The notes beneath the pieces were generated by a model. It was not told the DNA's origin, did no database searches, and was given only the letters and a program-made list of their open reading frames with translations. From positions 135,124-199,123 of the IMG/VR virus record IMGVR_UViG_3300021256_000055: a stretch of DNA of 64,000 bases; one strand, written 5' to 3'. Both the position numbers and the translations under genes were made by a program. Shown here one piece after another: positions 2,393-22,555 of this stretch (position 1 is the stretch's first letter; every line of letters begins with the position of its first letter). The stretch is from a virus (taxonomy: Duplodnaviria; Heunggongvirae; Uroviricota; Caudoviricetes).

Positions 2393-4355
2393 CTGTAGTC
2401 CTTTTTATTATTTTACGCATTAGCTGCTGAGAGGATAAATACCAACTTGAATTTCTATCCCACTGGTACTTTACCTCTTTACCTTCCTGTGCACGCCCTA
2501 AAACAATTGAACAACACATAATTTTATCATCCTTAATATCACAATAGGATAATAATAAAATATTAACTTTATGCATGTCAAATAGAGTACTTACCATATT
2601 GTAGCACATTGGAAAACCATTTAGGCCTTCTATAACAGATAAGCAAGCTCCCTTAATGCCTGTATTTATTGAAAGCCACCCATCACCAGCATTATATACT
2701 GAATTTGGAAAAATACCAGCGTCTCCCCAATTATTTCCTTTTTCATAAATAATTTTTCCATAAGTTGAGTCAATAGCAGTAGGTGTACCTATTTCTGAGC
2801 TTCCTAAAATACCTATTTCATAACAATTTGATTCAGTTACTTCTATCCCTGCTTTTTTAAGGGCTCTAATACCAGAAACACTCTTTACTCTAGAGTATAA
2901 ATCCATTTTTCTTAAATTATTTACGTCGATACCACAATTTAAAAAATCTTTTGCACTTGGTACAACTAAGTTTTTCTCGGGTAAACAGTTAATATCTATA
3001 AAATCTTCTGGATTTTTATATAAATTTGTGTATAAATCCCAGCTTAGAACTTCTATTGGGTCTTCTATAATATTATCTATCCAACCCTCAGGATATTTTT
3101 GTTTTCTAGATAATACAATACTCGCGTCATTTCCGCCAAAGGCAAAAGAATTACATAAAATAACATTTGGCATCTTAAATGTCTCATATTGTCTTATATA
3201 ATTAACATTTTTATTTATACCTTCACCGCTAAAGCCAACTGTAGGTAGTAGTGTACCTTCATAAAACATTCTTGTGGCTAATACTGCATTTATTATACCG
3301 GATACACCTAAAGTATGTCCCAATGCTGATTTTGAACTACTAACATAGGGACCTTCAAACTTATCAATATCCTTTGTAAGTTTTTCAATAGCTAATGATT
3401 CTGCTGTATCATTTGCTATTGTACCCGTTCCATGTGTATAAATATAATCTACTGCTTTTACAGTAAACTTTGCATCTTCTAATGCCTTTTGCATTGTGTA
3501 TAATTGACTTTCACCTGTACTATCTGGAGCAGTAATATGATGTGCCTCTGAACTAATAGCGCCACCATCAAGATAACAATACCAATCTGCTTTTCGTTCT
3601 TTTGCTGCTTTTTCTGATTCCAATATTATTGCAGCGGCTCCTTCACCAAGAGTAAGCCCATTAGGATTACTAAGAGGAGCGCAAGGTTTAGTATCAAGTG
3701 CTTTTAATGATAGAAACCCTGAAAAATGTACATCAGATAATACATCAGCGCCAATTACAACAACTCTGTCTTCTTTACCACTTGCAATAAGATTATACGC
3801 ATAATATAAAGCTACAGTGCCTGAAGAACAAGCAGTTGAAATAGTTATTACGTTATCTGGTGGAACTAAACAAAGAGATGACTTCTTAATTACTTCATCA
3901 AAAGTTCTATCTGTAATAGATTCTTCATTAAAATCTTTATTATTATAAATGCTATCCTTATTATAAATTTGAGTTGCCCTATCTGAATCGCCAGAGCAAG
4001 TTGCATTTAGTATTACAATTCTGGAATTATCAAGTAATTTCGCATCTTTAACTGCATCATCAAGAGCTTTTCTTAAGATATAAAAATATTTTTTATTTTT
4101 TGATTTTGTATTACCCTGTAAATCTACTGTAAAACCTTTATTAGTCTTAGATAAAATTGAAAGACCCTCTTCTGGTTCACCATCCATAGTTATCTGTGTA
4201 ATTTCAGCACCAAGGTTAGTATAACAATTTTCAGTTGAGATACCTTTTATTTCTTTAATACCAGTTTGGTTTGCACAGATTTTACTATAATTTTCTTGAA
4301 CTGTGTCACCAAGAGAAGTAACTAATCCTATTCCTGTTATTACGCATTCATTCAT
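2376..4355 (-). CDS. beta-ketoacyl-ACP synthase (KAS I/II-like) with about 250-aa C-terminal extension
   Basis: The N-terminus VITGIGLVTSLGD is typical of KAS. Active-site Cys lies in ISTACSSGT. His motifs are YIYTHGTGT and GHTLGVSGI. The family end motif CNSFAFGGNDASIVL is present. A C-terminal region of about 250 aa is unassigned. Confidence 0.8.
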   Translation of the reverse strand: MNECVITGIGLVTSLGDTVQENYSKICANQTGIKEIKGISTENCYTNLGAEITQITMDGEPEEGLSILSKTNKGFTVDLQGNTKSKNKKYFYILRKALDDAVKDAKLLDNSRIVILNATCSGDSDRATQIYNKDSIYNNKDFNEESITDRTFDEVIKKSSLCLVPPDNVITISTACSSGTVALYYAYNLIASGKEDRVVVIGADVLSDVHFSGFLSLKALDTKPCAPLSNPNGLTLGEGAAAIILESEKAAKERKADWYCYLDGGAISSEAHHITAPDSTGESQLYTMQKALEDAKFTVKAVDYIYTHGTGTIANDTAESLAIEKLTKDIDKFEGPYVSSSKSALGHTLGVSGIINAVLATRMFYEGTLLPTVGFSGEGINKNVNYIRQYETFKMPNVILCNSFAFGGNDASIVLSRKQKYPEGWIDNIIEDPIEVLSWDLYTNLYKNPEDFIDINCLPEKNLVVPSAKDFLNCGIDVNNLRKMDLYSRVKSVSGIRALKKAGIEVTESNCYEIGILGSSEIGTPTAIDSTYGKIIYEKGNNWGDAGIFPNSVYNAGDGWLSINTGIKGACLSVIEGLNGFPMCYNMVSTLFDMHKVNILLLSYCDIKDDKIMCCSIVLGRAQEGKEVKYQWDRNSSWYLSSQQLMRKIIKRTTDGHRE

Positions 4356-8540: not shown

Positions 8541-8604
8541 AATTTAAACCGCCATTAGTATTAATATTAGAATTAGTTTTAAATATTTGCGGCTAAATTA
8601 AAAA

Positions 8605-8628
8605 AGGCCTTATAATAAGGCCTTTTTA
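8605..8628 (-). terminator. rho-independent terminator (aggccttataataaggcct + T-run)
   Basis: Perfect 7-bp stem with T-runs on both strands, placed at the 3' end of the 8629..9282 gene. Confidence 0.6.
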
Positions 8629-9282
8629 TTATTTTTTAGCTTTTGGTGATTTTAATTTTTCAGGTTTTAATAGAGCTTTTCTTAATGTATGTATCTCATC
8701 ATAATTATCATACGATACTTTTTTGTCATCCTCACCTCTAGAGTAAGAATATACGTCAGGATTAAAATAGGCTAAAGCTCGTTTAGTAAAATATTCTACT
8801 TGCGACTTAGCCTTTTCCTTAATATTTAAAAGATTATAAGGTTCAATACCATGATCTCTAGCAAATATTGCATTTTTTAATGCCGTCGCCAAACCTATAA
8901 TTGGGTAGGAATGTTCAAATCCCTCATCTTCTGTATAACTAACACCAATAGAAACAGTTCCTTTACCATTAGAAATGGCTACAACCGACCCAAATGGTTT
9001 TCCTCTCTCAGACTGAATATAACTTAAACCACTATCTGTTACTACTTTATCTCCAATAAAGCCAGGACGTAAACGATTGCATAAATACTTATTTCCGCCT
9101 TTAGTAAAATCTTTAACAAAATCCTCTGCAGCAATTACTTCTTGCGCAAAATTTAATTCATCATTTGAACATCCAAGCTCCTTAGCTGATAGCGATGAAT
9201 TCTCTCTTAATTTTTTTACAACTAGCTTAATTGACTTAGATTGTATTTTATTTTTAAATCTATTTTTTTGTGAAAAGCTCAC
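8629..9282 (-). CDS. hypothetical protein (217 aa), Lys-rich termini
   Basis: Intact ORF. Confidence 0.5.
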   Translation of the reverse strand: MSFSQKNRFKNKIQSKSIKLVVKKLRENSSLSAKELGCSNDELNFAQEVIAAEDFVKDFTKGGNKYLCNRLRPGFIGDKVVTDSGLSYIQSERGKPFGSVVAISNGKGTVSIGVSYTEDEGFEHSYPIIGLATALKNAIFARDHGIEPYNLLNIKEKAKSQVEYFTKRALAYFNPDVYSYSRGEDDKKVSYDNYDEIHTLRKALLKPEKLKSPKAKK

Positions 9283-9836
9283 TTATCATTACCTACACTA
9301 CTAAGTATTTTTGTTGCTATTCCAAATCCTAAACCGCAGACTGCGCCTAAAACATGATTCTGATGCGCAATATGATCAGTCTTTGTGAACATAGCTAAAA
9401 ACTCTGGTAAAACAAATACCAATAAAAGTATAATACTAGTTATAGGTAATCCTTCAGACTCATCAGTCTGGAATGTGTTCAAAATAACCCACATATATGC
9501 AATAGATGATAATCCATAACATGGTATGCCAGATACCACAGATACTATACCTATAACTAGAGCGCCAAGTAGTGTAATTATCGCCAACGGAATTGTACCA
9601 AATTTATCTTCAATGGAAGGACCGAGCATAGCAATATAAACAATATTACCCAAAAAATGGCTCCATCCACTATGACCAAAAATATGTAAAACAATACCTG
9701 CATTCCATTTATTATTTGTTGCAAAATGACTAGCAAAATTTGGAATAAAACATTCCTGAATAAGAACAATAATAAATGAAATAAAAATCAATAAAACTGT
9801 AAAAGTTGACTCAAATGACACTAACTTCTTCTTCAT
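9279..9836 (-). CDS. rhomboid-family intramembrane serine protease (185 aa)
   Basis: Several TM segments. A TM2-like HIFGHSGWSHFLGN...LGPSIEDKFG matches the H..H...N / G..E...G motif. A catalytic Ser candidate lies in YGLSSIAY. A TM6 His lies in HIAHQNHVLGAVCGLGFG. Confidence 0.65.
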   Translation of the reverse strand: MKKKLVSFESTFTVLLIFISFIIVLIQECFIPNFASHFATNNKWNAGIVLHIFGHSGWSHFLGNIVYIAMLGPSIEDKFGTIPLAIITLLGALVIGIVSVVSGIPCYGLSSIAYMWVILNTFQTDESEGLPITSIILLLVFVLPEFLAMFTKTDHIAHQNHVLGAVCGLGFGIATKILSSVGNDK

Positions 9837-9839
9837 AAA

Positions 9840-10415
9840 CTATGCGCTATACTTATTAAGAATATCCTGAAGCTCATCCTTAGAGCCTTCGCCTTTTGCT
9901 GCAAACTTCCATTCGCCATTGTGACGATAAAGCTCTGCAACAATCATTGAAGCAGCTGTTGAATAGTCTTCTGAAAGATCAAAACGGAATTCTTCCTTAC
10001 CATTTGTATCATCCATAGATGAAAGGCTAAGAAGACGGATATAAGCATTATTTACCATACCAAAATTCTGCTTACGTTCAGCAGCCTTATGAATTGTTAC
10101 TGCAAATACAATGTGTTCAATATTTGCTGGAATCTTTTCAAAGTCAATAAGAATTGACTCATCATCACCAGCAGCATCACCTGTACGATTGTCACCAGAA
10201 TGGATAACAGCTCCAGAACTATGCTTTGTATGATTGTAGAATACAAAGTCATCATCTGATGTCATCTTTGAATTTGCACCAAGCAAAAATACTTCAGTGT
10301 CCAAATCAAAATCGGCTCCATTATCATAGCCATTTACATCCCAACCAAGGCCGGCCTTAGCAAAGCGCATTCCCTTGTCCAAAGAAACTTTCTGTCCTTT
10401 CTCAAGATTAATCAT
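9840..10415 (-). CDS. terD: TerD-domain protein (paralogue 1, 191 aa)
   Basis: MINLEKGQKVSL...GLGWDV...DFDLD...GDNRTG...GDDE...EIYRHNGEWKFAAKG are canonical TerD/TerE/TerZ (tellurium-resistance, Ca-binding) motifs. Confidence 0.85.
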   Translation of the reverse strand: MINLEKGQKVSLDKGMRFAKAGLGWDVNGYDNGADFDLDTEVFLLGANSKMTSDDDFVFYNHTKHSSGAVIHSGDNRTGDAAGDDESILIDFEKIPANIEHIVFAVTIHKAAERKQNFGMVNNAYIRLLSLSSMDDTNGKEEFRFDLSEDYSTAASMIVAELYRHNGEWKFAAKGEGSKDELQDILNKYSA

Positions 10416-10819
10416 TTAAGATCCTCCAATATTTTGTTAACTTCTTTTTCAGCTAACATATAATAATATGTTTTCGGGTCATACAAAAGTCTAACTCCAA
10501 TAATATCGGAATAAGAGCCCTCATAAGCGTATACTTCCAATTTTATTGGAAGATAACTACCCTTTTTAGATATTTTAGCCCAATTAAGCTTAATATCTCT
10601 TGCGATATCTTGCCTAATATCTTCTACTGTTAGAACAACATATGGACTCAAAAAAGGACCTTTATCATACGAAAACTCATATTCTAAGCCATCTTTGATT
10701 TCTATATAATTTAGAAAATCTAAATGATGACAAAGACTATTATTGTTTATCATATTTTCAAAAGTCTTTTGAGCCCTCTTTAAGTAAAAAAGGGGAGACC
10801 TACTAAGATATTGCTCCAT
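10412..10819 (-). CDS. hypothetical protein (135 aa) embedded in TerD array
   Basis: Intact ORF overlapping TerD1 by 4 nt. No motif. Confidence 0.5.
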   Translation of the reverse strand: MEQYLSRSPLFYLKRAQKTFENMINNNSLCHHLDFLNYIEIKDGLEYEFSYDKGPFLSPYVVLTVEDIRQDIARDIKLNWAKISKKGSYLPIKLEVYAYEGSYSDIIGVRLLYDPKTYYYMLAEKEVNKILEDLK

Positions 10820-10833
10820 AATCTCCCTATTTA

Positions 10834-11415
10834 TTAGCAGCTTCCACCATACTTACGTACAAATGCTTCAAGGCCACCAGCAAAGCCATCACCCTTTGCA
10901 GCAAATTTCCATTCACCATTATGGCGATAGATTTCAGCTACAAGAATAGCTGTTTCTGTTGAATAGTCTTCAGACAAATCAAAACGGAGTTCTTCCTTAC
11001 CTGACTCAGCACCTGCCTTTTCAAGAGAAAGCAAACGAATAAATGCATTGTTTACCATACCAAAATTCTGATGGCGTGTTTCCGCATCATGAATTGTTAC
11101 AACAAACGCAAGCTTTTCAATATTTGCTGGCACTTTAGTGAAATCAATATAAATTGATTCATCATCACCTTCTCCAGCGCCTGTACGATTATCTCCTGAA
11201 TGTATAACTGCGCCAGATGCATGTTTCTGGTTATTATAGAAGATAAAATCCTCATCTTTTTGAAGTTTATCTCCAGATCCAAGCATAAATACTGATGCGT
11301 CAAGATCAAAATCCTGACCGTTATCAAAACCATTTACATCCCAGCCAAGACCTGCTTTAGCAAACTTGATTCCAGAATCAAGTGAAACTTTCTGTCCTTT
11401 AGATAAGTTAATCAT
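10834..11415 (-). CDS. terD: TerD-domain protein (paralogue 2, 193 aa)
   Basis: Same motif set as paralogue 1: MINLSKGQKVSLD, GDNRTGAGEGDDE, EIYRHNGEWKFAAKGDG. Confidence 0.85.
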   Translation of the reverse strand: MINLSKGQKVSLDSGIKFAKAGLGWDVNGFDNGQDFDLDASVFMLGSGDKLQKDEDFIFYNNQKHASGAVIHSGDNRTGAGEGDDESIYIDFTKVPANIEKLAFVVTIHDAETRHQNFGMVNNAFIRLLSLEKAGAESGKEELRFDLSEDYSTETAILVAEIYRHNGEWKFAAKGDGFAGGLEAFVRKYGGSC

Positions 11416-11441
11416 TAACTACTCCTTAAATTTTTATTACT

Positions 11442-11455
11442 TATATAATATGTGA
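11442..11455 (-). promoter_or_regulatory. conserved TATAATATGT-type motif instance
   Basis: Plus-strand tatataatatgtga, upstream of TerD2. An AAGGAG ribosome-binding site lies between it and the ATG. Confidence 0.4.
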
Positions 11456-11471
11456 ATATTTTACGCTAAGT

Positions 11472-11825
11472 CTAGCTTTCAAGTAATTTAGAAACTTCAT
11501 AATTTGCTACATCTACATAATATTTATGCTCATCATAACTAATTTTGGCCATTATACTAAAACCTTCAACATAGAAGCTAATGCTAATTGGAATACATAT
11601 ATCCTTAATAGTATTTTTCCAAATTATTCTTAAATAATCTAATTGATAATCTAAATAACTTGGATCAGGACCAATTCTCATTCCGCTTATTTCTACAATA
11701 TAAAAATCTTCACCTTGCTTAGCCAACCTAACATAATTATATCCATTAGCAAATACAGCCCTTCTCAAAATAAGAAGGGCTTTCTTTAAGTAATTCTCAG
11801 GTGTATCAGTTATTTCTAAAAACAT
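11472..11825 (-). CDS. hypothetical protein (117 aa) embedded in TerD array
   Basis: Intact ORF. Confidence 0.5.
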   Translation of the reverse strand: MFLEITDTPENYLKKALLILRRAVFANGYNYVRLAKQGEDFYIVEISGMRIGPDPSYLDYQLDYLRIIWKNTIKDICIPISISFYVEGFSIMAKISYDEHKYYVDVANYEVSKLLES

Positions 11826-11827
11826 AT

Positions 11828-12355
11828 TTATTTATAACAAACTGAACTTACTGAAACTATTGAAGTATACGGATTAGTATCTACTTTATTTGGATAATCA
11901 GGATAGTTTGGGGTTCTTACATAAACTCTCTTTTGAAAATCCTGATAAGCGGTAGTATAAGACATATTATAAGTAGAATGACTTACACTATGCCTACGCC
12001 CATTATATACAAAATAGTACTCAGCACTATGATGTCTAGACTTTCTGGTTCTATGTCCCTCACTGTCAGTAACATAATAGTATTCTGTCCATGCGGGCTT
12101 ATATTCTCGCATTATATTCCATGACTCAGTATAAACTGGTCCACGCTCACTTTCAATCTCTGAAGTTGTATAGCTATATGTCTTATGAAGATGAACTATA
12201 CCTTTTCCAGCATAGAAAATCAAAACACAAGCTAATACAATTCCTACCAGAATCATAAAAGTCTTACCAACGCTGTCCCAAGGAATCTCATCCTTAAGTA
12301 CAGTAAGCGCAGAAGGCCTAGAACTGTACTTATTCTTTTCTGATGCCATTAGCAC
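11828..12355 (-). CDS. membrane-anchored hypothetical protein (175 aa), Tyr/Thr/His-rich ectodomain
   Basis: One N-terminal TM helix (FMILVGIVLACVLIFYAG). The rest is Y/T/S/H/R-rich. Confidence 0.5.
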   Translation of the reverse strand: MLMASEKNKYSSRPSALTVLKDEIPWDSVGKTFMILVGIVLACVLIFYAGKGIVHLHKTYSYTTSEIESERGPVYTESWNIMREYKPAWTEYYYVTDSEGHRTRKSRHHSAEYYFVYNGRRHSVSHSTYNMSYTTAYQDFQKRVYVRTPNYPDYPNKVDTNPYTSIVSVSSVCYK

Positions 12356-12930
12356 TGTCCACCGTACATACGAACGAATCCAGCTAATCCATTCTTGAAT
12401 CCGTCACCTTTTGCGCCAAACTTCCATTCACCATTATGACGATAAATTTCAGCAATCAAAAGGGCTGTCTCAGTAGAATAATCCTCGGTTAAATCAAAAC
12501 GAAGTAATTCTTCTCCAGCTGTATCTTCTTTATTTTTTACTGCAGTAAGATGAATAAATGCATTATCAACCATACCAAAGTTCTGTCTACGCTGATCAGC
12601 TTCATGAATTGTTACAACAATTGCAAGCTTGCTAATACTTGCTGGGATCTTTGTAAAATCAATATAAATCTGTTCATCATCACCGTCTCCGGCGCCGGTA
12701 CGGTTATCTCCCATATGTTTTACTGACTTTGAAGGATGCTCCAAATTATTATAGAAAACAAAATCTTCATCTTTCTGAAGTTTACCATTTGCGCCAAGCA
12801 TAAATACAGATGCATCCAAATCGAAATCAAAACCGCCACTATATTTATTTGTATCCCAACCAAGACCTACATAGGCATACTGTGTGGATTTTCCAAGTTC
12901 AATTTTCTGTCCTTTTACGAGATTAATCAT
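12349..12930 (-). CDS. terD: TerD-domain protein (paralogue 3, 193 aa)
   Basis: MINLVKGQKIEL...GLGWD...DFDLD...GDNRTGAGDGDDE...EIYRHNGEWKFGAKGDG. Confidence 0.85.
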   Translation of the reverse strand: MINLVKGQKIELGKSTQYAYVGLGWDTNKYSGGFDFDLDASVFMLGANGKLQKDEDFVFYNNLEHPSKSVKHMGDNRTGAGDGDDEQIYIDFTKIPASISKLAIVVTIHEADQRRQNFGMVDNAFIHLTAVKNKEDTAGEELLRFDLTEDYSTETALLIAEIYRHNGEWKFGAKGDGFKNGLAGFVRMYGGQC

Positions 12931-12943
12931 TTATATTCCTCCA

Positions 12944-12962
12944 GGGCGTTTTATAACGCCCC
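12944..12962 (-). other. GC-rich hairpin (gggcgttttataacgcccc) between TerD4 and TerD3
   Basis: Stem seen in the sequence. On the minus strand it is followed by a GGAGG ribosome-binding site, not a U-run, so it is more likely an intercistronic RNA structure than a strong terminator. Confidence 0.35.
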
Positions 12963-12975
12963 GATTTTTAATTTT

Positions 12976-13551
12976 TTAGTTATAGCGGTTAACAACAGCG
13001 CTGACATAATCAGCGTCTTTTACACCTTCACCAATAGCTGCGAACTTCCATTCACCGTTATGACGATAAATTTCACCAGCAATCAAACCTGTTGATGTAC
13101 CTTTAGATTCATCAAGATTGAAACGTGCAAGCTCTTCATTGCCATTCTTTGGATTGTAAAGACGAATATATGCATTACGCAAAGCAGACATATCCTGTCC
13201 ACGTTTTGATGCTTCATAAATATTCATGAAAACTACAATCTTATCTACATTTGAACGAACTTCATTCAATGAAATCTCAATTGTTTCATCATCACCGTCG
13301 CCACCACCAGTACGGTTATCTCCAGAGTGATGAATACCAGGAAGGTCCTTATTGCTGAAATAAACAGTTGATTCATTAAACTGTCGAGAAACTACTCTAC
13401 CATCTGAGCCCAAACAAACGCAAGAAGCATCACAGTCAAAATCTGCTGCCCAAGAACTCTGCACTGGGTCCCAACCAAGACCAACATTAATTTTTGTAAG
13501 GCTTGTACCTTTTGTAAGATCAATTTTCTGACCCTTTGTTAAATTAATCAT
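12976..13551 (-). CDS. terD: TerD-domain protein (divergent paralogue 4, 191 aa)
   Basis: MINLTKGQKIDL...GLGWDP...DFDCD...SGDNRTGGGDGDDE...EIYRHNGEWKFAAIGEG. Confidence 0.8.
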   Translation of the reverse strand: MINLTKGQKIDLTKGTSLTKINVGLGWDPVQSSWAADFDCDASCVCLGSDGRVVSRQFNESTVYFSNKDLPGIHHSGDNRTGGGDGDDETIEISLNEVRSNVDKIVVFMNIYEASKRGQDMSALRNAYIRLYNPKNGNEELARFNLDESKGTSTGLIAGEIYRHNGEWKFAAIGEGVKDADYVSAVVNRYN

Positions 13552-13574
13552 TTAACATCCTCCAAATATTTTAA

Positions 13575-14162
13575 TTACCAGCGATTAATAATTTCTGAAA
13601 TACGACTAGCATTTTTAATTGATTCACCAACCGCAGTGAAATTCCAACCATCTTCCGACTTAGACAATTCTCCTGCTATAAATCCTTCAACTGGTCCCAG
13701 GTCTTTATCCAAATCATAACGACAAAGTTCTTCATTAGTGTCTGCGTTATATACACGAATATAAGCATTTCTCAAACTTGTCATATTCTGATGACGATCT
13801 CGCGCATCATAAATATTCATAAAGATTGGAATACGTTCAACATTATTTGGAAGTTTGTCAAAGGTGATAGAAATCGTTTCATTATCTTTATTTCCGCCAC
13901 CAACACGATCATCACCAGAATGATGAACACCAGCCATATCTTTATGACCATAATAAACTACATAATCAGTTCCAAGAAGTTTACCCTTCTTGGAAAGACA
14001 TGCCAAAGAAGCATCACAATCAATATCTTCATCATTACTAAAAATTGATAAAAGACCCTTTTTGCGTTCTACTTCATCCCAGCCTAAAGCAACATTGATA
14101 TGCTTAAGCGTACCATCTTTTTTTACAAGGTTAATTCCCTGTCCTTTTGTTAAATTAATCAT
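13575..14162 (-). CDS. terD: TerD-domain protein (divergent paralogue 5, 195 aa)
   Basis: MINLTKGQGINL...ALGWDE...DIDCD...SGDDRVGGGNKDNE. More degenerate, but the same architecture. Confidence 0.7.
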   Translation of the reverse strand: MINLTKGQGINLVKKDGTLKHINVALGWDEVERKKGLLSIFSNDEDIDCDASLACLSKKGKLLGTDYVVYYGHKDMAGVHHSGDDRVGGGNKDNETISITFDKLPNNVERIPIFMNIYDARDRHQNMTSLRNAYIRVYNADTNEELCRYDLDKDLGPVEGFIAGELSKSEDGWNFTAVGESIKNASRISEIINRW

Positions 14163-14171
14163 ATTTTTTAC

Positions 14172-14573
14172 CTACTTAGCCCAAAGGCCTTTAATAACAA
14201 TATCACTAGAATATTCTGGACATAATTTATATTTTCCTGATTTTGTTTTTCTTGCTAAAGACTGCGCAGTAACAAAATCTAATTGTGAATAAACAGGCGG
14301 CCCATATCGATAAAGCCGACGGTCGTCATAATCACCATAAGCATTTGGGTCTTCTAAAATAAGATGATATTGTACTGCGTCTATATATGACTTATAGTAT
14401 GTATCATTGCCCAAGTCCTTAAGAACTGCTAATCTAGTCAATTCTTTTGTATTAAGGCTAATAGGCCTAACATCGATTACCTTGTATTTAACTTCAATTG
14501 TTTCATAGCATTTATTACAACTTATAAGAAATAATGATGAAATAACTAATAAAGCAAATAATAACTTTTTCAT
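14172..14573 (-). CDS. lipoprotein (133 aa)
   Basis: Signal peptide with lipobox: MKKLLFALLVISSLFLISC. Confidence 0.55.
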   Translation of the reverse strand: MKKLLFALLVISSLFLISCNKCYETIEVKYKVIDVRPISLNTKELTRLAVLKDLGNDTYYKSYIDAVQYHLILEDPNAYGDYDDRRLYRYGPPVYSQLDFVTAQSLARKTKSGKYKLCPEYSSDIVIKGLWAK

Positions 14574-14599
14574 AAAACCTAAAATAAAACCACCATTAA

Positions 14600-14618
14600 A
14601 AATGGTGGCTATAGTTCT
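14600..14618 (-). terminator. rho-independent terminator (ccaccattaaaaatggtgg)
   Basis: 7-bp stem followed on the minus strand by ttttattttaggtttt. Sits 3' of the 14621..15232 gene. Confidence 0.55.
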
Positions 14619-14620
14619 TA

Positions 14621-15232
14621 TTAGAGAACCAAATCTCCATCAGCTGATGTTACAACACGAATACCATAAGTTTTTGTATCTACTTCGGCTGTTGGATCAA
14701 TAGCTACAGTTGCGTCCTTAACAATTGTTAGTGTCTGAGGAAGCTGAGCTACTTCATTTGCAAGTGCTGATTCTTTTGCACAATTGAATACACAATAGTC
14801 ATAACAAAGACCAGTAAAATACAAATTTACTTTTTCACCATTCTTAATAGCGTCATCAATTGGCTTCATATCTTTTTCTGACAGTCGTCCAAGAACATCA
14901 ACACCATACTCTTCTTCAGCTGCATTCTGGCCTTTATAAATAAAGGCAACTGGCTTGTCCTTTGCAAATGCAGAAATCATATCAGATACACGCCAATCCA
15001 AATCAGAACCAGCTGTGCCATCTACACAGTGTGCAGGCCAAGGACCATTCTGCTCCTTAAATGAACAGTGATTAGTAGGATGCATATCCTTTGTGGCGAT
15101 AATCATATCAGGATTAATTCTTTCCTGAGCAATCTTAAGCTTATTAAAAGCTTCATCCCACTTGTCATAACCGACTCCAAGTGAGCCGTTAATAAAATCG
15201 TTCTGAACATCTACCAAAACTAAAATATTCAT
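14621..15232 (-). CDS. pncA: nicotinamidase/pyrazinamidase-like isochorismatase-family hydrolase
   Basis: VLVDVQNDF N-terminal Asp motif. Catalytic Cys lies in YFTGLCYDYCV. Fold-typical length of 203 aa. Confidence 0.7.
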   Translation of the reverse strand: MNILVLVDVQNDFINGSLGVGYDKWDEAFNKLKIAQERINPDMIIATKDMHPTNHCSFKEQNGPWPAHCVDGTAGSDLDWRVSDMISAFAKDKPVAFIYKGQNAAEEEYGVDVLGRLSEKDMKPIDDAIKNGEKVNLYFTGLCYDYCVFNCAKESALANEVAQLPQTLTIVKDATVAIDPTAEVDTKTYGIRVVTSADGDLVL

Positions 15233-15250
15233 GTTTTAACTCCTTACGAA

Positions 15251-15261
15251 TATAATATGTA
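15251..15261 (-). promoter_or_regulatory. conserved TATAATATGT motif instance
   Basis: Plus-strand tataatatgta, upstream of the pncA-like gene. An AAGGAG ribosome-binding site follows. Confidence 0.4.
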
Positions 15262-15283
15262 TTTTAATATTAAAAATGCTAAA

Positions 15284-15550
15284 TTATTTTAATCTCTCAT
15301 GATTAAATTTTTTTGTATATTTGTTAACTTCTGCTTCTGTGAGCTTACCATAAATTCTTTCCATAAGAAAGAGTATTGCGTCTAATCCTGCATAAAATCC
15401 ATCAAAATTAAAAAATAAAATTTTATTAAAAAAATCTTTTTTAGACAAATTATCGGCGGGCATAACGCAAGCACTTCTTATACCCTGCTGTTCTTTTGGA
15501 GATACCTCAACTTGTTCACGATTTGCATTATACCTAAAAACCAAATCCAT
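15284..15550 (-). CDS. hypothetical protein (88 aa)
   Basis: Intact ORF. Confidence 0.45.
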   Translation of the reverse strand: MDLVFRYNANREQVEVSPKEQQGIRSACVMPADNLSKKDFFNKILFFNFDGFYAGLDAILFLMERIYGKLTEAEVNKYTKKFNHERLK

Positions 15551-15594
15551 AATAAGCTCCTTCCCTTCCTAGGTATAATATGTCTATGAAGATA

Positions 15595-16152
15595 CTATAA
15601 GTCTAAATTTTTAGATAAAATTTCTTTTCTAATACGAGTTGAAGATTCTGGATTATTCATTGGAATATATTCATATGGAATATCTGTTGGCAAGTCTGTA
15701 TCATATCCGGGGCGATTAAAAACTATAAGCTTTGTCAAAGCCAAAATTTCTTCCCACTTATACCATGTTTTAATTTTCTGAAGTGAATCTGAGCCAATAG
15801 CTACATAAAATTCTATACCAGCAGCATTTGCTTGTTTTTTAGCTAGCTCAATATTATCAATATCAGCTTGGCAAAAAGATTCTATAAAAAATTTAATTGT
15901 ATCTATAAAACGCCAATTTTCTGGAATATTAGCTTCAATTTTAGAAACTATAATATTTGGTAAATAGCTAACTTTATCCTCTACCATTTTACAGCGATCC
16001 TCAAATGAGTACATTGTTTGATTTGGCTTATAGTATGTAATATTTGTTGGTACAAGAATTACCTTATCAAACTTATCTGACAAATATTCAACTATTTCTT
16101 TATGTGCACTGTGAAATGGATCAAATGTACCACCATAAATTACATATCTCAT
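15595..16152 (-). CDS. nadD: nicotinate/nicotinamide mononucleotide adenylyltransferase (NadD/NMNAT family)
   Basis: GGTFDPFHSAH is the (H/T)xGH nucleotidyltransferase motif. The C-terminal SSTRIR is the ISSTxxR motif of NadD. Confidence 0.75.
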   Translation of the reverse strand: MRYVIYGGTFDPFHSAHKEIVEYLSDKFDKVILVPTNITYYKPNQTMYSFEDRCKMVEDKVSYLPNIIVSKIEANIPENWRFIDTIKFFIESFCQADIDNIELAKKQANAAGIEFYVAIGSDSLQKIKTWYKWEEILALTKLIVFNRPGYDTDLPTDIPYEYIPMNNPESSTRIRKEILSKNLDL

Positions 16153-16322
16153 TAAAAAACCTCTGCAAGAAATTTACCAATAAAAATTGAGGCTGTCCCA
16201 CCTAGAAGGATAAAAACTAATCTACGAAAGAAATGTGTCCACTTAAAAGACTCATCTGGAGTAAGCTTTACTTCATATAGAGTCTTATCTTCCTCATCCT
16301 TAATTTTAATAGTCTTTTCCAT
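16152..16322 (-). CDS. small membrane protein (about 56 aa), not in the supplied ORF track
   Basis: My own translation: MEKTIKIKDEEDKTLYEVKLTPDESFKWTHFFRRLVFILLGGTASIFIGKFLAEVF. Its stop overlaps the nadD start (TAATG). The conserved motif abuts its ATG. Confidence 0.4.
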   Translation of the reverse strand: MEKTIKIKDEEDKTLYEVKLTPDESFKWTHFFRRLVFILLGGTASIFIGKFLAEVF

Positions 16323-16323
16323 A

Positions 16324-16337
16324 TTTATAATATGTAA
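16324..16337 (-). promoter_or_regulatory. conserved TTTACATATTATAAA motif instance abutting a start codon
   Basis: Minus-strand reading is ACATATTATAAAT then ATG. No ribosome-binding site in between. Confidence 0.45.
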
Positions 16338-16360
16338 TTTATATTAAGAAATTATGAATT

Positions 16361-16921
16361 TTAATTTTTAAAAGTAAGTTCTACCTGATAAACTTCTGAG
16401 AAAGGATATACTTTAATATTTTCTTGTATAGTAATACCACTTGGGCTTGGGATTACATTACTAGCATAATCTGAAATTTCATTACTTATTTTATATTTTT
16501 CTAAAGTACTATCCAACTTATGCTGTAATAAAGCTGCATTATAATTATTCATTTGCTTACCAATCATAGTCTGAGATACAGCCTGAATATCCTGCTTTAT
16601 CTTACTATAAAGCATACGGTCCCTAAGTGATATTTCATCGGGCATATCACCACTATATAAACGGTCTAACTCATCCGCCTCTTCAAAGTCATCCCCACCA
16701 AAATAATCTACTGCATCATGAAATGATGCTTGATTAGTTGCGTCCCCAATCTTAAGCTTATCTTTTCTTACCTTACTTGTCTTTGGTACATCTACTTTCT
16801 CTAGACTAATGGGAGAAATGCCTTTGGAATCTAAAGTCAACTCATTAGGGCTTATAGTAACTTTATCATCTGCAAATGTAAATTTATTAAATATTGATAA
16901 AAGGTTCTTTTGAAGAGACAT
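16361..16921 (-). CDS. hypothetical protein (186 aa)
   Basis: Intact ORF. Confidence 0.5.
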   Translation of the reverse strand: MSLQKNLLSIFNKFTFADDKVTISPNELTLDSKGISPISLEKVDVPKTSKVRKDKLKIGDATNQASFHDAVDYFGGDDFEEADELDRLYSGDMPDEISLRDRMLYSKIKQDIQAVSQTMIGKQMNNYNAALLQHKLDSTLEKYKISNEISDYASNVIPSPSGITIQENIKVYPFSEVYQVELTFKN

Positions 16922-17114
16922 AAATTTCTATTACCCTAGCGCCTTCCGGCCATAATGGATGATTTTCATTTGGCTGTTCATCAGCTTCTCTATAATATGC
17001 TAAAATTTGGTCCATTGATTCAAATTCGCGAATTACTCTTAATCTGTTATCTGTGCCCTCACTAGTATAAATTGGAGCATTAGTAACTACACAAAATTTT
17101 TTTACGAAATTCAT
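16887..17114 (-). CDS. hypothetical protein (75 aa)
   Basis: Intact ORF overlapping its downstream gene. Confidence 0.4.
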   Translation of the reverse strand: MNFVKKFCVVTNAPIYTSEGTDNRLRVIREFESMDQILAYYREADEQPNENHPLWPEGARVIEIYVSSKEPFINI

Positions 17115-17144
17115 AATAATAGATTAGCGTAGGATAATAAAAAA

Positions 17145-17164
17145 GGACTGCATAGATGCAGTCC
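17145..17164 (-). terminator. rho-independent terminator (ggactgcatagatgcagtcc)
   Basis: 8-bp stem followed by tttttt on the minus strand. Sits 3' of the Nudix gene. Confidence 0.6.
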
Positions 17165-17187
17165 CTTAAATTTATTTTTAAATTATA

Positions 17188-17820
17188 TTACTTTTTATAT
17201 TTTGCTTCAAATTTTGCTTTTGCAAAAGCGGCTTTTTTAGCTTTACTATAATAATCAGCAATCTTTATTTGTTCCTTAAGCGCAGTAAGCTGTTCGTAAC
17301 TTTGCCAAAGAAAAGCGCCCATAACTGAATCATCATCACTTCCAAGATAATCATTTGGGTTATCTACTTCTACAACATTGATAAACTCATTCTCGTCAAG
17401 ATGCTGTTTATCACGCTCACCTGAAACTTCCACCAAAAATCCATTCATATGATTATTCATAAACGCCGGATTTGGACATTTTCTATAAAGCTGTGTAATA
17501 ATTTTTACATCTTTATAACCAGTTTCTTCCTTAACTTCTCTTACACAAGCTTCAGCTGGCGTTTCACCTTCCTCAACTGTTCCCGAAGGAAATTCATAAA
17601 CTTCCTTATTTACGCCATGACGAAACTCTTTTACCATAATAAACTTTTTTGTGTCTTTATTATAAATAAGAGCTGAACACCAATCTGGACATTTTAAAGA
17701 AACAAACTTACCCTGCTTACCCGCTGGATTAGTTTTAACAGTTTCCATAACTGTCCAAATAAATGTTTTTAAAAGTTCTTTTGTTTCACCAATTTTCCAT
17801 TCTGCCATTTTAAGCTCCAT
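17188..17820 (-). CDS. Nudix hydrolase (ADP-ribose/NAD-derivative pyrophosphatase-like)
   Basis: Perfect Nudix box: GTVEEGETPAEACVREVKEETGY (G-x5-E-x7-REVxEExGY). Confidence 0.8.
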   Translation of the reverse strand: MELKMAEWKIGETKELLKTFIWTVMETVKTNPAGKQGKFVSLKCPDWCSALIYNKDTKKFIMVKEFRHGVNKEVYEFPSGTVEEGETPAEACVREVKEETGYKDVKIITQLYRKCPNPAFMNNHMNGFLVEVSGERDKQHLDENEFINVVEVDNPNDYLGSDDDSVMGAFLWQSYEQLTALKEQIKIADYYSKAKKAAFAKAKFEAKYKK

Positions 17821-17821
17821 A

Positions 17822-17834
17822 TTTATAATATGTT
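17822..17834 (-). promoter_or_regulatory. conserved motif instance abutting the Nudix start codon
   Basis: Minus-strand reading is ACATATTATAAAT then ATG. Confidence 0.45.
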
Positions 17835-19362
17835 ATCTAATGTTATAAATGTCTGAATATTTATCTTTCAAATAGTCGATAAAATAATGTGGATTAAAAT
17901 CCTCATCTGTTATATATTTAATCCAGTCAAGGGTATCTCTTAAATCTGGCTCAGCATCAGTAAATACCCAATCTTTCATCCATTTATTTATTTTACTAAA
18001 GTCACATTTTGCTAAATCGCCTTTAATGTCGAGCTCTTCAGTATCTTCCAACATATAATTGTAATACATTGCATTCAACATATTTCCAATTGCATAAGTT
18101 GGAAAATATCCAAAACCACTTGACCAATGCATATCTTGAAGAATTCCTTCTTTATCATTTGGTGGTGTTATACCAAGATAGTCCTTATATTTATCATTCC
18201 AAATTTTTGGCAAATCTTCAATCTTAGCCTGCTTATTAAGAATAAGCTGTTCAATTTCATAGCGGATTATAATATGGAACGTATATGTTAATTCATCTGC
18301 TTCTGTACGAATAAGTGTTGGCTTAACTTCATTAAGCGCTTCATAAAGTTCTTGTGGAGTTACATCATTAAGTACATTAGGAATAATTTCTTTTAATTCA
18401 TCAAAAATACCAAAAATAAACTCTTTTGATGAGCACAAAACATTTTCATAAAATCTTGATACTGATTCATGTTTTGAAAGAGATTTATTATCACAGAACT
18501 TATCATATGCTTCAGGATTTCCATTCTGCATAAAAAGTGCATGGCCACCTTCATGAATACAGGAGTACATACTATACTGAAAAGCAGTTGGATAATAATG
18601 TGTTGTAACACGTGCATCATTCTTTGTCATCTGCTCTGTAAATGGATGCTCAGACTCTGCTAAAAGGCCCTTATTAAAATTAAATCCAATTTTAGAAAGA
18701 ACTAAATTGCTAATCTTTTTTTGTTGTTCAATAGAAACTTCTCTACTAAGGAAATCAGTCCTAATCTTCTTTTTAGAGTTTACAATCTTTTTAAGAAATG
18801 GTACCATTTCTGTTTTGAACTCACCAAACCAGTAATCCAAGTCCTTAGTTGTAATATCCTTTTCGTATTCATAGAATACAGCATCATAAACATTATCAAA
18901 CTTTGGTTTATCTGCCCACTTATCTAACTGTTCAAAAGTTACATCCCTAACCGCGCTTAGAGAATCCTTAAATAAATTAAAATCACTTGCTTGCTTAGCC
19001 TGTTGCCAATCAGAGAAAGCTTTTAAGAAAACCCTACAATGTTTATCAGCCATTTCCGGAGTAATATTTTTGCTTCTACAATAATCTTCATATAGAAGCT
19101 CAATAGTTTTACGAGCATATTTGTCTTTTATAATATGACGATGCTTATAAAAGTAGAGCATAGTTTTAATATATTTTTTATCTTTGAATCTTTTAAAATT
19201 CTGATTACTGATAAAAGCTTCTAATTCGCTATGCTCATCCATAGCGTCTTTTGGACAAATAGTTTCTCTATCAAAAGCCAATAAATTATTTATACTGTTG
19301 TATTTATTTGATTCTTCTAAAAACTTAATCAAATAATCTCTTTTCTTCTGTACGCTACTCAC
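17833..19362 (-). CDS. M32-family carboxypeptidase (carboxypeptidase Taq-like metallopeptidase)
   Basis: HEGGHALF is the HExxH motif. IRTEADELTY and GILQDMHWSSGFGYFPTYAIGNM match M32 signature blocks (IRxEADE; QDxHW...GYFPTY). Confidence 0.75.
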   Translation of the reverse strand: MSSVQKKRDYLIKFLEESNKYNSINNLLAFDRETICPKDAMDEHSELEAFISNQNFKRFKDKKYIKTMLYFYKHRHIIKDKYARKTIELLYEDYCRSKNITPEMADKHCRVFLKAFSDWQQAKQASDFNLFKDSLSAVRDVTFEQLDKWADKPKFDNVYDAVFYEYEKDITTKDLDYWFGEFKTEMVPFLKKIVNSKKKIRTDFLSREVSIEQQKKISNLVLSKIGFNFNKGLLAESEHPFTEQMTKNDARVTTHYYPTAFQYSMYSCIHEGGHALFMQNGNPEAYDKFCDNKSLSKHESVSRFYENVLCSSKEFIFGIFDELKEIIPNVLNDVTPQELYEALNEVKPTLIRTEADELTYTFHIIIRYEIEQLILNKQAKIEDLPKIWNDKYKDYLGITPPNDKEGILQDMHWSSGFGYFPTYAIGNMLNAMYYNYMLEDTEELDIKGDLAKCDFSKINKWMKDWVFTDAEPDLRDTLDWIKYITDEDFNPHYFIDYLKDKYSDIYNIR

Positions 19363-20206
19363 CTAAAATTACCTTCTTAAATACACGATAGTTTGTATCA
19401 TCATCTGGTCTACAATATACCGCAAACTCAATATTTCTAAAACAATGCTTAAACTCTGGCAAAACTGCCTTGTACGCTTTTGCTACAATTACTGGATCAT
19501 TTCTAAATGCACCACATCCAAAAGCGCCAACAATAAGTGTATCACAACCATTATTTGCAGCAACATTAAAAATACGTCGCGCACGTTTAACATGAAGATT
19601 ATACAAATCTTCATCTGAAATTTCAACCTTCTCTACAGCAAGCTCTTCATTATAAGCATTTTTTGGATTTGGCCGCAAATTCGGTGCAGCACAAGTAAGT
19701 ACATCTACTTTCATCCAGTCGTCATTCTGAAGAATATGATAATTATCTTCCTTAAAAATTACAACTCCAGGAGTATAAATAATATCATCATTATGGAGAG
19801 GCCCTAAACTTTCCCTATGCGGAGTATAAAACTTATCAAAACATTCTTTAATATTAAGGCTGTTATAAAGTGTTGAGCATCTACATAAACATTCTTCCTG
19901 TGCTGAAGAACCTTTTGTTACTCCACCACCTGGTGTAGTTGCTGAAGCAAAATTCAATACACATACTTTATTTGAAATATACTCCCTAGCTGCATCAAAA
20001 GAACTTGACTTTGTAACATATATCTTTGATGGTCCCTGGTATTTATCTTCAGCTTTAGGAATTTCTGTATTTTCCAAAATAATCTGTTGATTTTCAGTTG
20101 CTTTTTCTACAGCTTCCTTTAAGTAAGCCGTAGTTTTAATTCTGTCAACAGTATCATTAAAAACTGAAATATTACTTTCTCTTATTGAAAAAGATTTTCC
20201 TGACAT
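19355..20206 (-). CDS. bacterial-type poly(ADP-ribose) glycohydrolase / macro-domain protein (DUF2263/TIGR02452-like)
   Basis: ATTPGGGVTKGSSAQEECLCRCS matches the GGG-x6-8-QEE PARG signature. The downstream Gly-rich segment GAFGCGAF fits a macro fold. Confidence 0.6.
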   Translation of the reverse strand: MSGKSFSIRESNISVFNDTVDRIKTTAYLKEAVEKATENQQIILENTEIPKAEDKYQGPSKIYVTKSSSFDAAREYISNKVCVLNFASATTPGGGVTKGSSAQEECLCRCSTLYNSLNIKECFDKFYTPHRESLGPLHNDDIIYTPGVVIFKEDNYHILQNDDWMKVDVLTCAAPNLRPNPKNAYNEELAVEKVEISDEDLYNLHVKRARRIFNVAANNGCDTLIVGAFGCGAFRNDPVIVAKAYKAVLPEFKHCFRNIEFAVYCRPDDDTNYRVFKKVILGE

Positions 20207-20759
20207 TTTTAGTTTCCTCCAAACTGTACCTTTCTCTTGAAATTAATTTGTTACATTTATAACATTTACTAATTGTGCCATCTCTAGCAATAATAGTTTT
20301 ATGTCTACAACTATTTTTTTTAGAAAAATTAAAAGTTAGATATGGTATCTTACAATCATACATGCTTATACATGCATCTTTGAAATTATTAAACATAACC
20401 CAATATTTTGTTGACATCCAACAATTTGTAAAACCATAACAAGTTGGCGCAGTAAATGCATATAATTTTGCTATTTTCATACCTTTCTTAAGGCTAAATC
20501 TATCTTTATGACATCTACTTATACCAAATCTAATATCCGGCTCCGTAGTCGCGGTGCCTTCTTTAATGATAAAAGCCGCAAATAACATTATTGGCTTGCC
20601 CTTATCATTTGTAATTACACTATAGAGTTCCTTCTTACAAAGGGTATAAAGGCTCTCTCCCATCAGTATAGCTGTATCTGGTAAGCGTCTAATTTCACTT
20701 ACTAGTTCACCTTTCGCAAGTTTTTGATATGTTTCATTAAAATCTATATACTTACCCAT
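20172..20759 (-). CDS. hypothetical protein (195 aa) with C-terminal CxxC pair
   Basis: Intact ORF. C-terminal CYKC and a scattered Cys/His zinc-ribbon-like arrangement. Confidence 0.45.
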   Translation of the reverse strand: MGKYIDFNETYQKLAKGELVSEIRRLPDTAILMGESLYTLCKKELYSVITNDKGKPIMLFAAFIIKEGTATTEPDIRFGISRCHKDRFSLKKGMKIAKLYAFTAPTCYGFTNCWMSTKYWVMFNNFKDACISMYDCKIPYLTFNFSKKNSCRHKTIIARDGTISKCYKCNKLISRERYSLEETKNVRKIFFNKRK

Positions 20760-21336: not shown

Positions 21337-21361
21337 AATAATTTTCCTATAATAATAAAAT

Positions 21362-21387
21362 AGCCTCAGATTTGATAATCCGAGGCT
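21362..21387 (-). terminator. rho-independent terminator (agcctcagatttgataatccgaggct)
   Basis: 8-bp stem plus T-rich tail on the minus strand. Confidence 0.5.
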
Positions 21388-21393
21388 TTCTTA

Positions 21394-21843: not shown

Positions 21844-21847
21844 GCAA

Positions 21848-21862: not shown

Positions 21863-21876
21863 AATTGACATAAAGA

Positions 21877-22553: not shown

Positions 22554-22555
22554 TT

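Follow-up and report, generated by a model that had tools for sequence, protein, structure and literature searches.

Proteins of the TerD family occur widely, in bacteria and plasmids as well as in phages, and for about 40 years they have been associated with resistance to tellurite, colicins and phages by a mechanism that is unknown. What role, then, could a tandem array of five of them play in a phage? This question is raised by a stretch of 64,000 nucleotides, hereafter the window (positions 135,124 to 199,123 of the IMG/VR virus record IMGVR_UViG_3300021256_000055), in which five TerD-domain genes (T1–T5) and three small interleaved genes (U1–U3) lie between a gene for a rhomboid protease and a gene for a predicted lipoprotein. 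Our preferred answer, held with about equal measures of belief and doubt, is that these genes could form a phage-encoded Ter-like calcium and envelope-stress module, in which a Ca2+-responsive TerD assembly at the membrane would manage both the calcium and the envelope state of the host. Coordinates refer to the window throughout, and L-numbers denote relative and reference loci fetched for comparison.

The TerD array, its calcium sites and its link to a calcium pump

The five TerD genes are consecutive and lie on the minus strand, as the original prediction had it. All five open reading frames (ORFs) are present, and a search with the Pfam profile PF02342 gave full-length matches in the range of E 1e-49 to 1e-73 for T1 (9840–10415; E 9.5e-68), T2 (10834–11415; E 1.3e-71), T3 (12349–12930; E 7.2e-73), T4 (12976–13551; E 9.9e-58) and T5 (13575–14162; E 8.4e-49). 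Scores amounted to 166–244 bits against a gathering cutoff of 25.3, covering profile positions 3–178 of 187, and all five proteins also matched phrog_5698, the PHROG proper to TerD (E 1e-39 to 1e-40). Among solved structures, T2 aligned end to end with Klebsiella TerD (2KXT, E 1e-60) and also matched 3IBZ (E 2e-54); no TerD subfamily model in NCBIfam names the paralogues. The start MINLxKGQ is shared by the five proteins. The TerD signature motifs, which had been ascribed to all of them, are complete in T1–T3; T4 deviates at one (DFDCD) and T5 is degenerate at several (ALGWD, DIDCD, GDDRVGGGNKDNE and ELSKSEDGWNFTAVG). The proposed division into three close and two divergent paralogues proved well founded, since T1–T3 (class A, T3 being TerD/TerE-like) share 57–69% identity with one another (T1/T2 69%, T2/T3 68%, T1/T3 57%), T4 and T5 (class B) share 51%, and values between the classes range from 36 to 47%. 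Reciprocal best matches run among T1–T3 and between T4 and T5, the closest bacterial TerD being at most 62% identical.

The ligands of Klebsiella TerD, as given in a source that cites Pan et al. 2011 (PMC8779313), are residues 40, 41, 42, 78, 79 and 89 for the Ca1 site and residues 29, 82, 84 and 88 for the Ca2 site. Mapping on this list indicated that all side-chain ligands are kept in T1–T4. T4 retains ten of the ten positions, and T1 carries a G84A change at a backbone-ligand position that leaves its side-chain ligands intact. By these ligands T1–T4 are predicted to bind Ca2+. T5, with its variant Ca2+ site, carries the substitutions N79D and D88N (Klebsiella TerD numbering), both fixed in the phage of the window and in a divergent lineage alike, which points to a maintained variant rather than a decaying copy.

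The array belongs to a unit of about 6 kb and 11 co-directional genes, in the order lipoprotein, T5, T4, T3, U3, U2, T2, U1, T1, rhomboid and a 217-residue protein. An identical order, preceded by a nicotinamidase-like gene and ending after the rhomboid with a 180-residue protein, was found in a divergent relative represented in at least six independent ENA samples (L093–L098). The 11 genes of the module are kept one to one in this relative under purifying selection, with ratios of nonsynonymous to synonymous divergence (dN/dS) of 0.04–0.39 at saturated dS. The TerDs are the best conserved and most constrained among them, their orthologues being 66–94% identical against 26–57% for neighbouring non-module genes. 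T2 shows the highest conservation in the region (93.8% identity, dN/dS 0.04), and the remaining values are 88.5% and 0.09 for T1, 86.5% and 0.06 for T3, 75% and 0.13 for T4, and 66% and 0.25–0.27 for T5. The paralogues of the window are old (dS 0.9–1.9, nucleotide identity ≤70%), and their G+C content at third codon positions resembles that of the rest of the genome, so they can be considered long-term residents. Recent capture or gene conversion of the TerDs was ruled out by the same three measures, dS being at least 0.9.

More distant relatives (L100, L101, L102, L146, L182 and L183) have the module as the sole part in common with the window. Their arrays contain three TerDs, the orthologues of T4, T3 and T2 (66–77% identical; 66–67% for those of T4), with a single-transmembrane (TM) or lipobox protein between the second and the third. 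U3 gives a weak signal of similarity to this positionally equivalent membrane protein (hhalign E 7.8e-4; bridging BLASTP E 0.006), and the two are probably homologous. Because these relatives hold orthologues of T4, T3 and T2, the array of five grew from a three-TerD core (T4, T3, membrane protein and T2) by old duplications, in which T4 gave rise to T5 and T2 to T1, the latter as a cassette of a U gene plus a class-A TerD that yielded U1–T1.

In four of these relatives, from separate samples (L102, L146, L182 and L183), the array is directly preceded, at about 60 nucleotides and on the same strand, by a P-type ATPase of 909–911 residues. The protein adjoining the array in L146 and L102 matches phrog_12316 (E 1e-120), and its closest solved homologue is the Listeria Ca2+-ATPase LMCA1 (E 9e-101, full length), followed by PMCA and SERCA. 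A 61% identical pump, P0033, is recorded on a contig of 940,564 bp, a size and a contig-size profile that agree with the record of T2, U2 and the rhomboid. The neighbourhood of P0033 (L179) is phage-like, with genes for a dUTPase, a SNF2 helicase, a thymidine kinase, a PD-(D/E)XK nuclease and a clamp loader. It is syntenic with L182 and L102, where the thymidine kinase, a conserved 211-residue ORF and the pump are followed by a block of 173-residue, 140-residue and clamp-loader genes; the slot of the TerD genes in L182 and L102 is filled in L179 by unrelated genes on the opposite strand, and no TerD is found there. It is very likely that the phage of the window keeps its pump at the syntenic place and its TerD array elsewhere. 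Within one phage clade, the TerD cassette would thus be either fused behind a Ca2+ pump or, as in the window, relocated and expanded. An ORF of about 211–223 residues and of unknown function (L179:9211–9846; also in L182, L102, L146 and L180) always lies directly upstream of the phage Ca2+-ATPase, at 51–65% identity, and echoes the small co-transcribed gene found upstream of the pumps of jumbo gut (Jug) phages.

Lineage-restricted partners and boundaries of the unit

Three small genes, one of them membrane-anchored, had been described between the TerDs, and all are present on the minus strand. U1 (10412–10819; dN/dS 0.23) and U2 (11472–11825, upstream of T2; orthologue 39% identical, dN/dS 0.31–0.34) encode small cytoplasmic proteins that recognize each other as paralogues (jackhmmer E 1.6e-14) and form a single family with Ux, the gene preceding T3 in L103 and L174 (E 1e-14 to 1e-68). 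This family comprises three clusters among 5.8 billion proteins, all of them from this lineage, and U2 was without match in Pfam, PHROG and PADLOC scans. Identity between the U proteins and their orthologues is 39–69% (28% in L099), against 88–94% for their TerD partners. The stop of U1 overlaps the start of T1 (ATGA), with the GGAGG ribosome-binding site of T1 inside the U1 coding sequence, and Ux overlaps the start of T3 in L103. These two overlaps make the duplicating unit look like a two-gene cassette of a U gene and a class-A TerD, which in turn suggests that each U could be the cognate partner of its own TerD. The ribosome-binding sites of T1–T4 are strong (AAGGAG in T2), the genes are tightly packed, and the overlaps between gene pairs suggest translational coupling. 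An AlphaFold2 model of U1 (predicted local distance difference test, pLDDT, 76.5) displays an alpha-beta-beta-alpha-beta-beta-alpha pattern at moderate confidence, in two of the five models only. ORFs found in the gaps of the relatives' arrays were tried as U1 counterparts and rejected (hhalign probability 0.1%); they weakly resemble U3 instead.

U3 (11828–12355, minus strand; start at GTG 12355 or ATG 12349) abuts or overlaps the stop of T3 and encodes a protein that spans the membrane once and has a Tyr-rich, all-beta domain outside the cytoplasm, its model of a TM helix plus an all-beta ectodomain being confident (pLDDT 83.8). The family is restricted to the lineage, since an exhaustive profile search returned three true clusters only, plus weak matches to long repeat proteins. 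The flanks of the array likewise agree with the original prediction, a rhomboid lying on one side and a lipoprotein and a nicotinamidase-like gene on the other. The lipoprotein (14172–14573, minus strand; 133 residues) has a signal peptide, an N-terminal hydrophobic segment and a lipobox with its Cys (...LISC). Its orthologue is 54–56% identical (dN/dS 0.35–0.39), Pfam, PHROG and PADLOC scans found no match to it, and a homologue lies close to the module in L146 (jackhmmer 5e-23).

The rhomboid (9279–9836, minus strand) is a minimal intramembrane serine protease of 185 residues (PF01694, E 5.5e-13, 49.8 bits against a cutoff of 22.6), with an orthologue 68% identical (dN/dS 0.16–0.20). Aligned to Escherichia coli GlpG, it keeps the S201/H254 dyad, the equivalents of H141, H145, H150 and N154 (the HxxxxHxxxN of TM2) and the GxxxG motif, and is therefore predicted to be active; its scores fall below the NCBIfam GlpG equivalog cutoffs, so it should be considered a rhomboid but not a GlpG orthologue. 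The gene follows T1 in the close relatives, and in L146 a 54% identical rhomboid comes directly after the third TerD. A general linkage between rhomboids and TerDs was considered and discarded, since, of the 80 bacterial loci, only those of two Clostridium genomes that are closely related show it, and in the phage clade it is confined to L146 and the close relatives. In the two Clostridium loci (L015:11278–12108 and L017:11267–12106), a rhomboid/Der1-like membrane protein is encoded beside the TerD genes on the opposite strand, near a complete Ter biosynthetic module, an arrangement not seen in the other 78.

The last gene (8629–9282, minus strand; dN/dS 0.26) encodes the 217-residue protein, of unknown function and without match in Pfam, PHROG and PADLOC scans. 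Because its start overlaps the rhomboid stop by 4 nucleotides and it is kept after the rhomboid in relatives (L093, L094, L095 and L099), the unit most likely reaches one gene past the rhomboid, to 8629. A palindromic hairpin of 12 pairs with A and T runs on either side follows right after it (8601–8627) and is the probable downstream boundary, resembling a bidirectional terminator. The probable upstream boundary of the transcription unit is a terminator-like hairpin on the minus strand (14588–14610) between the nicotinamidase-like and lipoprotein genes, with 10 pairs and a T-run (−12.8 kcal/mol, z −3.1), whose stem CCACCAT...ATGGTGG is conserved in L093 and L095. A third, GC-rich hairpin lies in the T4–T3 spacer (12944–12961, minus strand), just 5' of the T3 Shine-Dalgarno and with no U-run (−15.4 kcal/mol, z −4.4); in L093 the corresponding spacer holds a hairpin with another sequence (L093:1659–1679; −14.3 kcal/mol, z −2.2). 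This element may serve mRNA processing or stability, splitting the operon into class-B and class-A parts.

Possible function and nature of the carrier

A role in Ca2+ or stress sensing, one of those suggested for the array at the outset, is the best supported of the readings considered here, and we would give it about an even chance of being right. The TerD paralogues would form an abundant cytoplasmic hetero-assembly that binds Ca2+. Judging from gene order, the small U proteins could be cognate partners of the class-A TerDs, and U3, the lipoprotein and the rhomboid could dock the assembly at the membrane, in place of TerC and TerB. Together with the pump, the assembly might buffer or sense Ca2+ entry and membrane perturbation in an infected host of Bacillota type, so that the cell would remain productive during the long cycle of a jumbo phage, and insults directed at the membrane, for instance by abortive-infection effectors or by incoming phages, would be blunted.

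The partners that usually accompany TerD are missing from the surroundings of the array. No Pfam match to TerC was obtained among the window genes scanned or listed, the sole multi-TM protein in the 64 kb being the rhomboid, and the Pfam scans and lists covering the window contain neither TerB nor TelA, PspA or von Willebrand factor A (vWA) proteins of the TerF/TerY kind. Among the Ter biosynthetic families, C-C lyase, PRTase_2/TRSP, StiP/PELOTA and HAD are all absent around the phage array and present in the Clostridium reference locus L015. A scan of ten module proteins against PADLOC-DB v2 returned no match at E ≤0.01, and the module is therefore not a catalogued defence system.

Several points weigh against the proposed calcium and envelope function. 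We know of no TerD biochemistry beyond Ca2+ binding in any system. Gene order is the sole basis on which a physical interaction among the TerDs, the U proteins and the membrane proteins is inferred. The U3 model has no recognisable fold, the U1 fold found no match in the PDB by Foldseek at ≤1e-3 (TM-score ≤0.44), and the homology of U3 to the membrane protein of the three-TerD relatives is weak. The rhomboid is absent from L102 and L182. In the phage of the window the pump is not adjacent to the array, its assignment to the same genome resting on the matching contig size and contig-size profile noted above, and the more divergent pumps of L180 and L181 have no TerD within 8 kb, so the linkage is specific to the clade. 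A bolder version of the proposal seems rather unlikely to us: that the TerDs, their cognate U proteins and U3, the lipoprotein and an active rhomboid would make up a self-contained Ca2+-gated membrane-protection machine independent of TerC and TerB, which would work with the phage's own Ca2+ exporter and, in a clade of huge phages infecting Bacillota, would counter either the influx of Ca2+ or abortive-infection effectors that depolarise the membrane, and perhaps exclude rival phages. Were this true, the question of TerD function, now decades old, could be put to a direct test in a minimal system.

The main alternative is that superinfection exclusion or competition between phages is the primary role, the envelope being altered so that rival phages cannot inject or replicate, as in the phage inhibition conferred by plasmid ter genes. 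We regard this as possible without thinking it probable. It has been proposed for the Ter genes of jumbo phages (Iyer et al. 2021, PMC7824862), inhibition of phages and resistance to colicins are both encoded by the classical ter cluster (Whelan 1995, as cited in PMC9796965), the module contains exported or membrane proteins (the lipoprotein, U3 and the rhomboid), and the fast evolution of the U proteins relative to their TerD partners could reflect an arms race. However, none of the ter-locus proteins that supposedly work at the membrane (TerC, TerB, TelA and the vWA proteins TerF/TerY) is present, PADLOC returned no match, and the Ca2+ exporter beside the array in sister phages argues for ion handling rather than entry blocking. 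Exclusion is in any case compatible with the calcium and envelope function, and the two are not mutually exclusive. That the TerD array might be the sensor arm of an island for signalling by nucleotides or derivatives of nicotinamide adenine dinucleotide (NAD) and for their salvage, together with nicotinamidase, nicotinate mononucleotide adenylyltransferase, NUDIX, PARG and NadE genes, appears improbable. In the window as in close relatives, PncA-like and NadD-like genes do lie directly upstream, the rhomboid of the distant relative L146 is followed by a PncB (PDB 1yir, E 1e-61), and bacterial ter loci such as L015 carry phosphoribosyltransferase (PRTase), HAD and StiP biosynthetic genes (the concept is that of PMC7824862), but between the nicotinamidase-like gene and the module stands the conserved terminator-like hairpin, and the TerD core occurs without nearby NAD genes in L102 and L182. 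Moreover, these genes are the ordinary Preiss-Handler salvage set known in large phages, for which TerD is not needed, and the Ter-specific PRTase_2/TRSP, StiP and C-C lyase genes are all lacking. Least credible of all is a cargo that benefits the host, conferring tellurite, metalloid or xenobiotic resistance on a lysogen or pseudolysogen. Tellurite resistance is the historical phenotype of ter loci and xenobiotic protection in pseudolysogeny was mentioned by Iyer et al. (PMC7824862), but TerC and TerB, which PMC8779313 regards as the unit central to tellurite resistance, are lacking, the DNA examined showed neither an integrase nor lysogeny genes, and tellurite would be an implausible selective agent in the gut or rumen.

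A further alternative concerns the carrier, as the window could be part of a bacterial chromosome, a megaplasmid or another large element with a ter locus of the host type. To our knowledge, no accepted phage genome reaches the 940,564 bp of the contig (from NCBI, Logan or ENA sources) on which the window's T2, U2 and rhomboid proteins are also recorded. That record, with its NCBI source, favours non-phage carriage, as do the lack of terminase, portal and major capsid genes in the roughly 82 kb, window included, that were examined of the 203,783-bp source contig (ENA metagenome contig ERZ12302812 NODE_59, to a part of which the window is identical), and the absence of a megablast match for the region among 50,697 phage records, which indicates that there is no close cultured relative. 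The match to the tail tube family phrog_45 (E 3.6e-16), about 5 kb past the window end, stands at the profile level only, tblastn against sequenced phages being empty. Against these points, the source contig measures 204 kb, the window is 96% coding (31.5% G+C; no tRNA genes were found in it), 65 of its 74 genes lie on one strand and most of them are without Pfam match. In addition to the tail tube, PHROG or Pfam matches include a phage-type RNA ligase (phrog_968), an HNH endonuclease, DNA methyltransferases, the phage ATPase phrog_2376, phrog_36352, a 5'-3' exonuclease and SIR2; the pump locus has its dUTPase, thymidine kinase, SNF2 helicase, PD-(D/E)XK nuclease and clamp loader among ORFans; and the DNA examined showed neither housekeeping genes nor any TerB, TerC, TelA or biosynthetic partner of the bacterial arrays. 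The TerD paralogues are also closer to one another than to any bacterial TerD. As for the 940,564-bp contig, it may represent a concatemer, a contig of a metagenome-assembled genome that is chimeric or mis-binned, or something else. Mis-binning of huge-phage contigs as bacterial genomes is a known event according to PMC12880540. We therefore consider non-phage carriage very improbable and hold with high confidence that the element is a large tailed phage rather than a host ter locus, the remaining doubt being due to the lack of a close cultured relative, of BLAST-level support for the tail tube and of a terminase, portal or capsid gene, and to the large contig. The suggestion that the carrier is phage-like, and not an ordinary host ter locus, is accordingly upheld on present evidence.

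This large phage inhabits the gut or rumen. Its host is probably of Bacillota type, as indicated by the use of Shine-Dalgarno motifs (before 50% of genes, against a background of 8%) together with the nearest bacterial homologues of the TerDs and of the Ca2+ pump, which come from Clostridia, Bacilli and Lachnospiraceae.

Several neighbouring genes deserve mention in their own right. The nicotinamidase-like gene (14621–15232), of the isochorismatase/nicotinamidase (PncA) type, scored 30.5 bits against a Pfam cutoff of 27 and 51 bits, below cutoff, with the NCBIfam PncA model. It opens a cluster for NAD salvage and ADP-ribose metabolism that adjoins the module (14621–24226), with a NadD-like gene (15595–16152), a NudE-like NUDIX gene (17188–17820), PARG (19355–20206), a histidine phosphatase (20752–21336) and NadE (23438–24226, above the NCBIfam cutoff); immediately past the edge of the window there is a SIR2 gene (L010:13900–14637), and the PncB step, missing from this cluster, is found after the rhomboid in L146 (L146:11417–12796). 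This cluster may replenish NAD+ against NAD-depleting defences. Within the same interval, on the minus strand, lies a full-length M32 carboxypeptidase Taq-type metallopeptidase (17833–19362; PF02074, E 1.9e-143), 90% identical in L174. The following are likewise on the minus strand. An uninterrupted ORF of 5,671 residues (43718–60733), neither half of which has a Pfam or PHROG match, lies downstream of the tail-tube-like gene and of ORFs of 806 and 612 residues and may encode a giant virion or tail protein. A divergent adenylosuccinate-synthetase-like gene (26935–28038) has as best PHROG phrog_1211, the PurZ-type '2-aminooxy adenylosuccinate synthetase' (E 5e-24), along with PF00709 (E 6e-14), and scores far under the PurA equivalog cutoffs; it could belong to a modified-base (2-aminoadenine) pathway. 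A beta-ketoacyl synthase of 659 residues (2376–4355; 662 in L093), with KAS I/II-type N- and C-terminal domains and an 81-residue ORF alongside, is an unusual auxiliary gene for a phage. A second membrane-organising element is represented by an SPFH/Band 7 scaffold protein (31566–32622; PF01145, E 6e-14; phrog_200, E 8.5e-62), followed by a 75-residue ORF with two TM segments. Finally, a beta-CASP/RMMBL metallo-beta-lactamase nuclease of the RNase J or CPSF-like type (34360–35817; phrog_36352, E 3.9e-97) has its nearest relatives in human faecal phage contigs.

Comparison with known Ter systems

The array had been regarded as unusual for a phage and as the core of a possibly undescribed module, two views that the comparison with known systems does not sustain. 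TerD has a PHROG of its own and was detected by tblastn with T2 at 144 places in at least 127 INPHARED records, up to three per record among the matches listed, many of them from jumbo phages and annotated as TerD or tellurium resistance. Tandem arrays of three to four TerDs occur on IMG/VR contigs of 94–222 kb. Among the 177 TerD-bearing loci fetched, 94 hold three copies, 32 hold four and nine hold five, this phage lineage accounting for five of the nine, and three tandem copies are the bacterial norm. Both phage TerD clusters and phage Ca2+ pumps have been published: Ter systems of jumbo phages by Iyer et al. [quoted passage not shown] Hence, five copies stand at the top of the observed range without founding a new category, although this is the largest phage TerD array seen here.

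Enterobacterial terZABCDE(F) clusters, such as those of IncHI2 R478 and of the Klebsiella TerD 2KXT, also have several TerD-domain paralogues per operon, and the full-length alignment of T2 comes with conservation of both Ca2+ sites; the phage array differs in the lack of TerB and TerC and in the host phylum. In the ter loci of Bacillota (yceCDE-type trios and Clostridium L015), the tandem TerDs fall into two classes of about 190 and 200 residues, are 55–62% identical to T1–T3 and normally number three or more; a rhomboid-like gene next to the array is likewise present in two Clostridium genomes. In contrast, the biosynthetic and membrane partners of these loci (in L015 C-C lyase, PRTase_2/TRSP, StiP/PELOTA and HAD) are not found in the phage, and none of the 80 bacterial loci examined contains the U1/U2, U3 or lipoprotein families. 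Cultured jumbo phages (Acinetobacter ME3, the Caulobacter CcrColossus type and Pseudomonas PhiPsa374 with terC-terD-terF-telA) share with the window TerD-domain genes that have been read as envelope, stress or superinfection functions (PMC7824862, PMC9796965), but they carry one TerD, rarely two or three, with TerC, TerF, TelA or PRTase/HAD, whereas here there are five and none of those partners.

A close parallel is provided by the Jug phages (PMC12880540). They too are large gut-type phages with several terD genes, presumed to be acquired from the host, two of which flank a hypothetical gene in the manner of T2-U1-T1, and they encode a Ca2+-translocating P-type ATPase. As described, they differ in several respects: their three terD genes lie in two loci rather than five in one array, their genomes of 360–402 kb belong to phages of Bacteroides and Phocaeicola, whereas here Shine-Dalgarno motifs precede about half of the genes and the nearest relatives of the TerDs and of the pump are from Bacillota, which argues for another group of hosts, and a pspA-like neighbour takes the place of the rhomboid, the lipoprotein and U1/U2/U3. 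In sister phages of the present lineage the pump directly adjoins the TerD array, a linkage not found in the part of PMC12880540 available.

What is new here is, on the one hand, a compact and strongly conserved phage version of the system that has shed the usual Ter partners (TerB, TerC, TelA and the biosynthetic genes) and gained its own, with five retained TerD copies, two lineage-restricted partner families (U1/U2 and the membrane-anchored U3), a rhomboid and a lipoprotein, and, on the other hand, the direct physical linkage in sister phages of the ancestral T4-T3-U3-like-T2 array to the Ca2+ export pump behind which it lies. The advance is incremental and brings no new principle; its main value lies in a small gene set suited to reconstitution, which opens to testing the hypothesis that, in the infected cell, TerD responds to Ca2+ as part of membrane and ion homeostasis. 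These data also extend the report of terD genes and Ca2+ pumps (PMC12880540) from the Bacteroides-infecting Jug phages to a lineage that probably infects Bacillota, and suggest that large gut phages resort recurrently to manipulating the calcium of their hosts.

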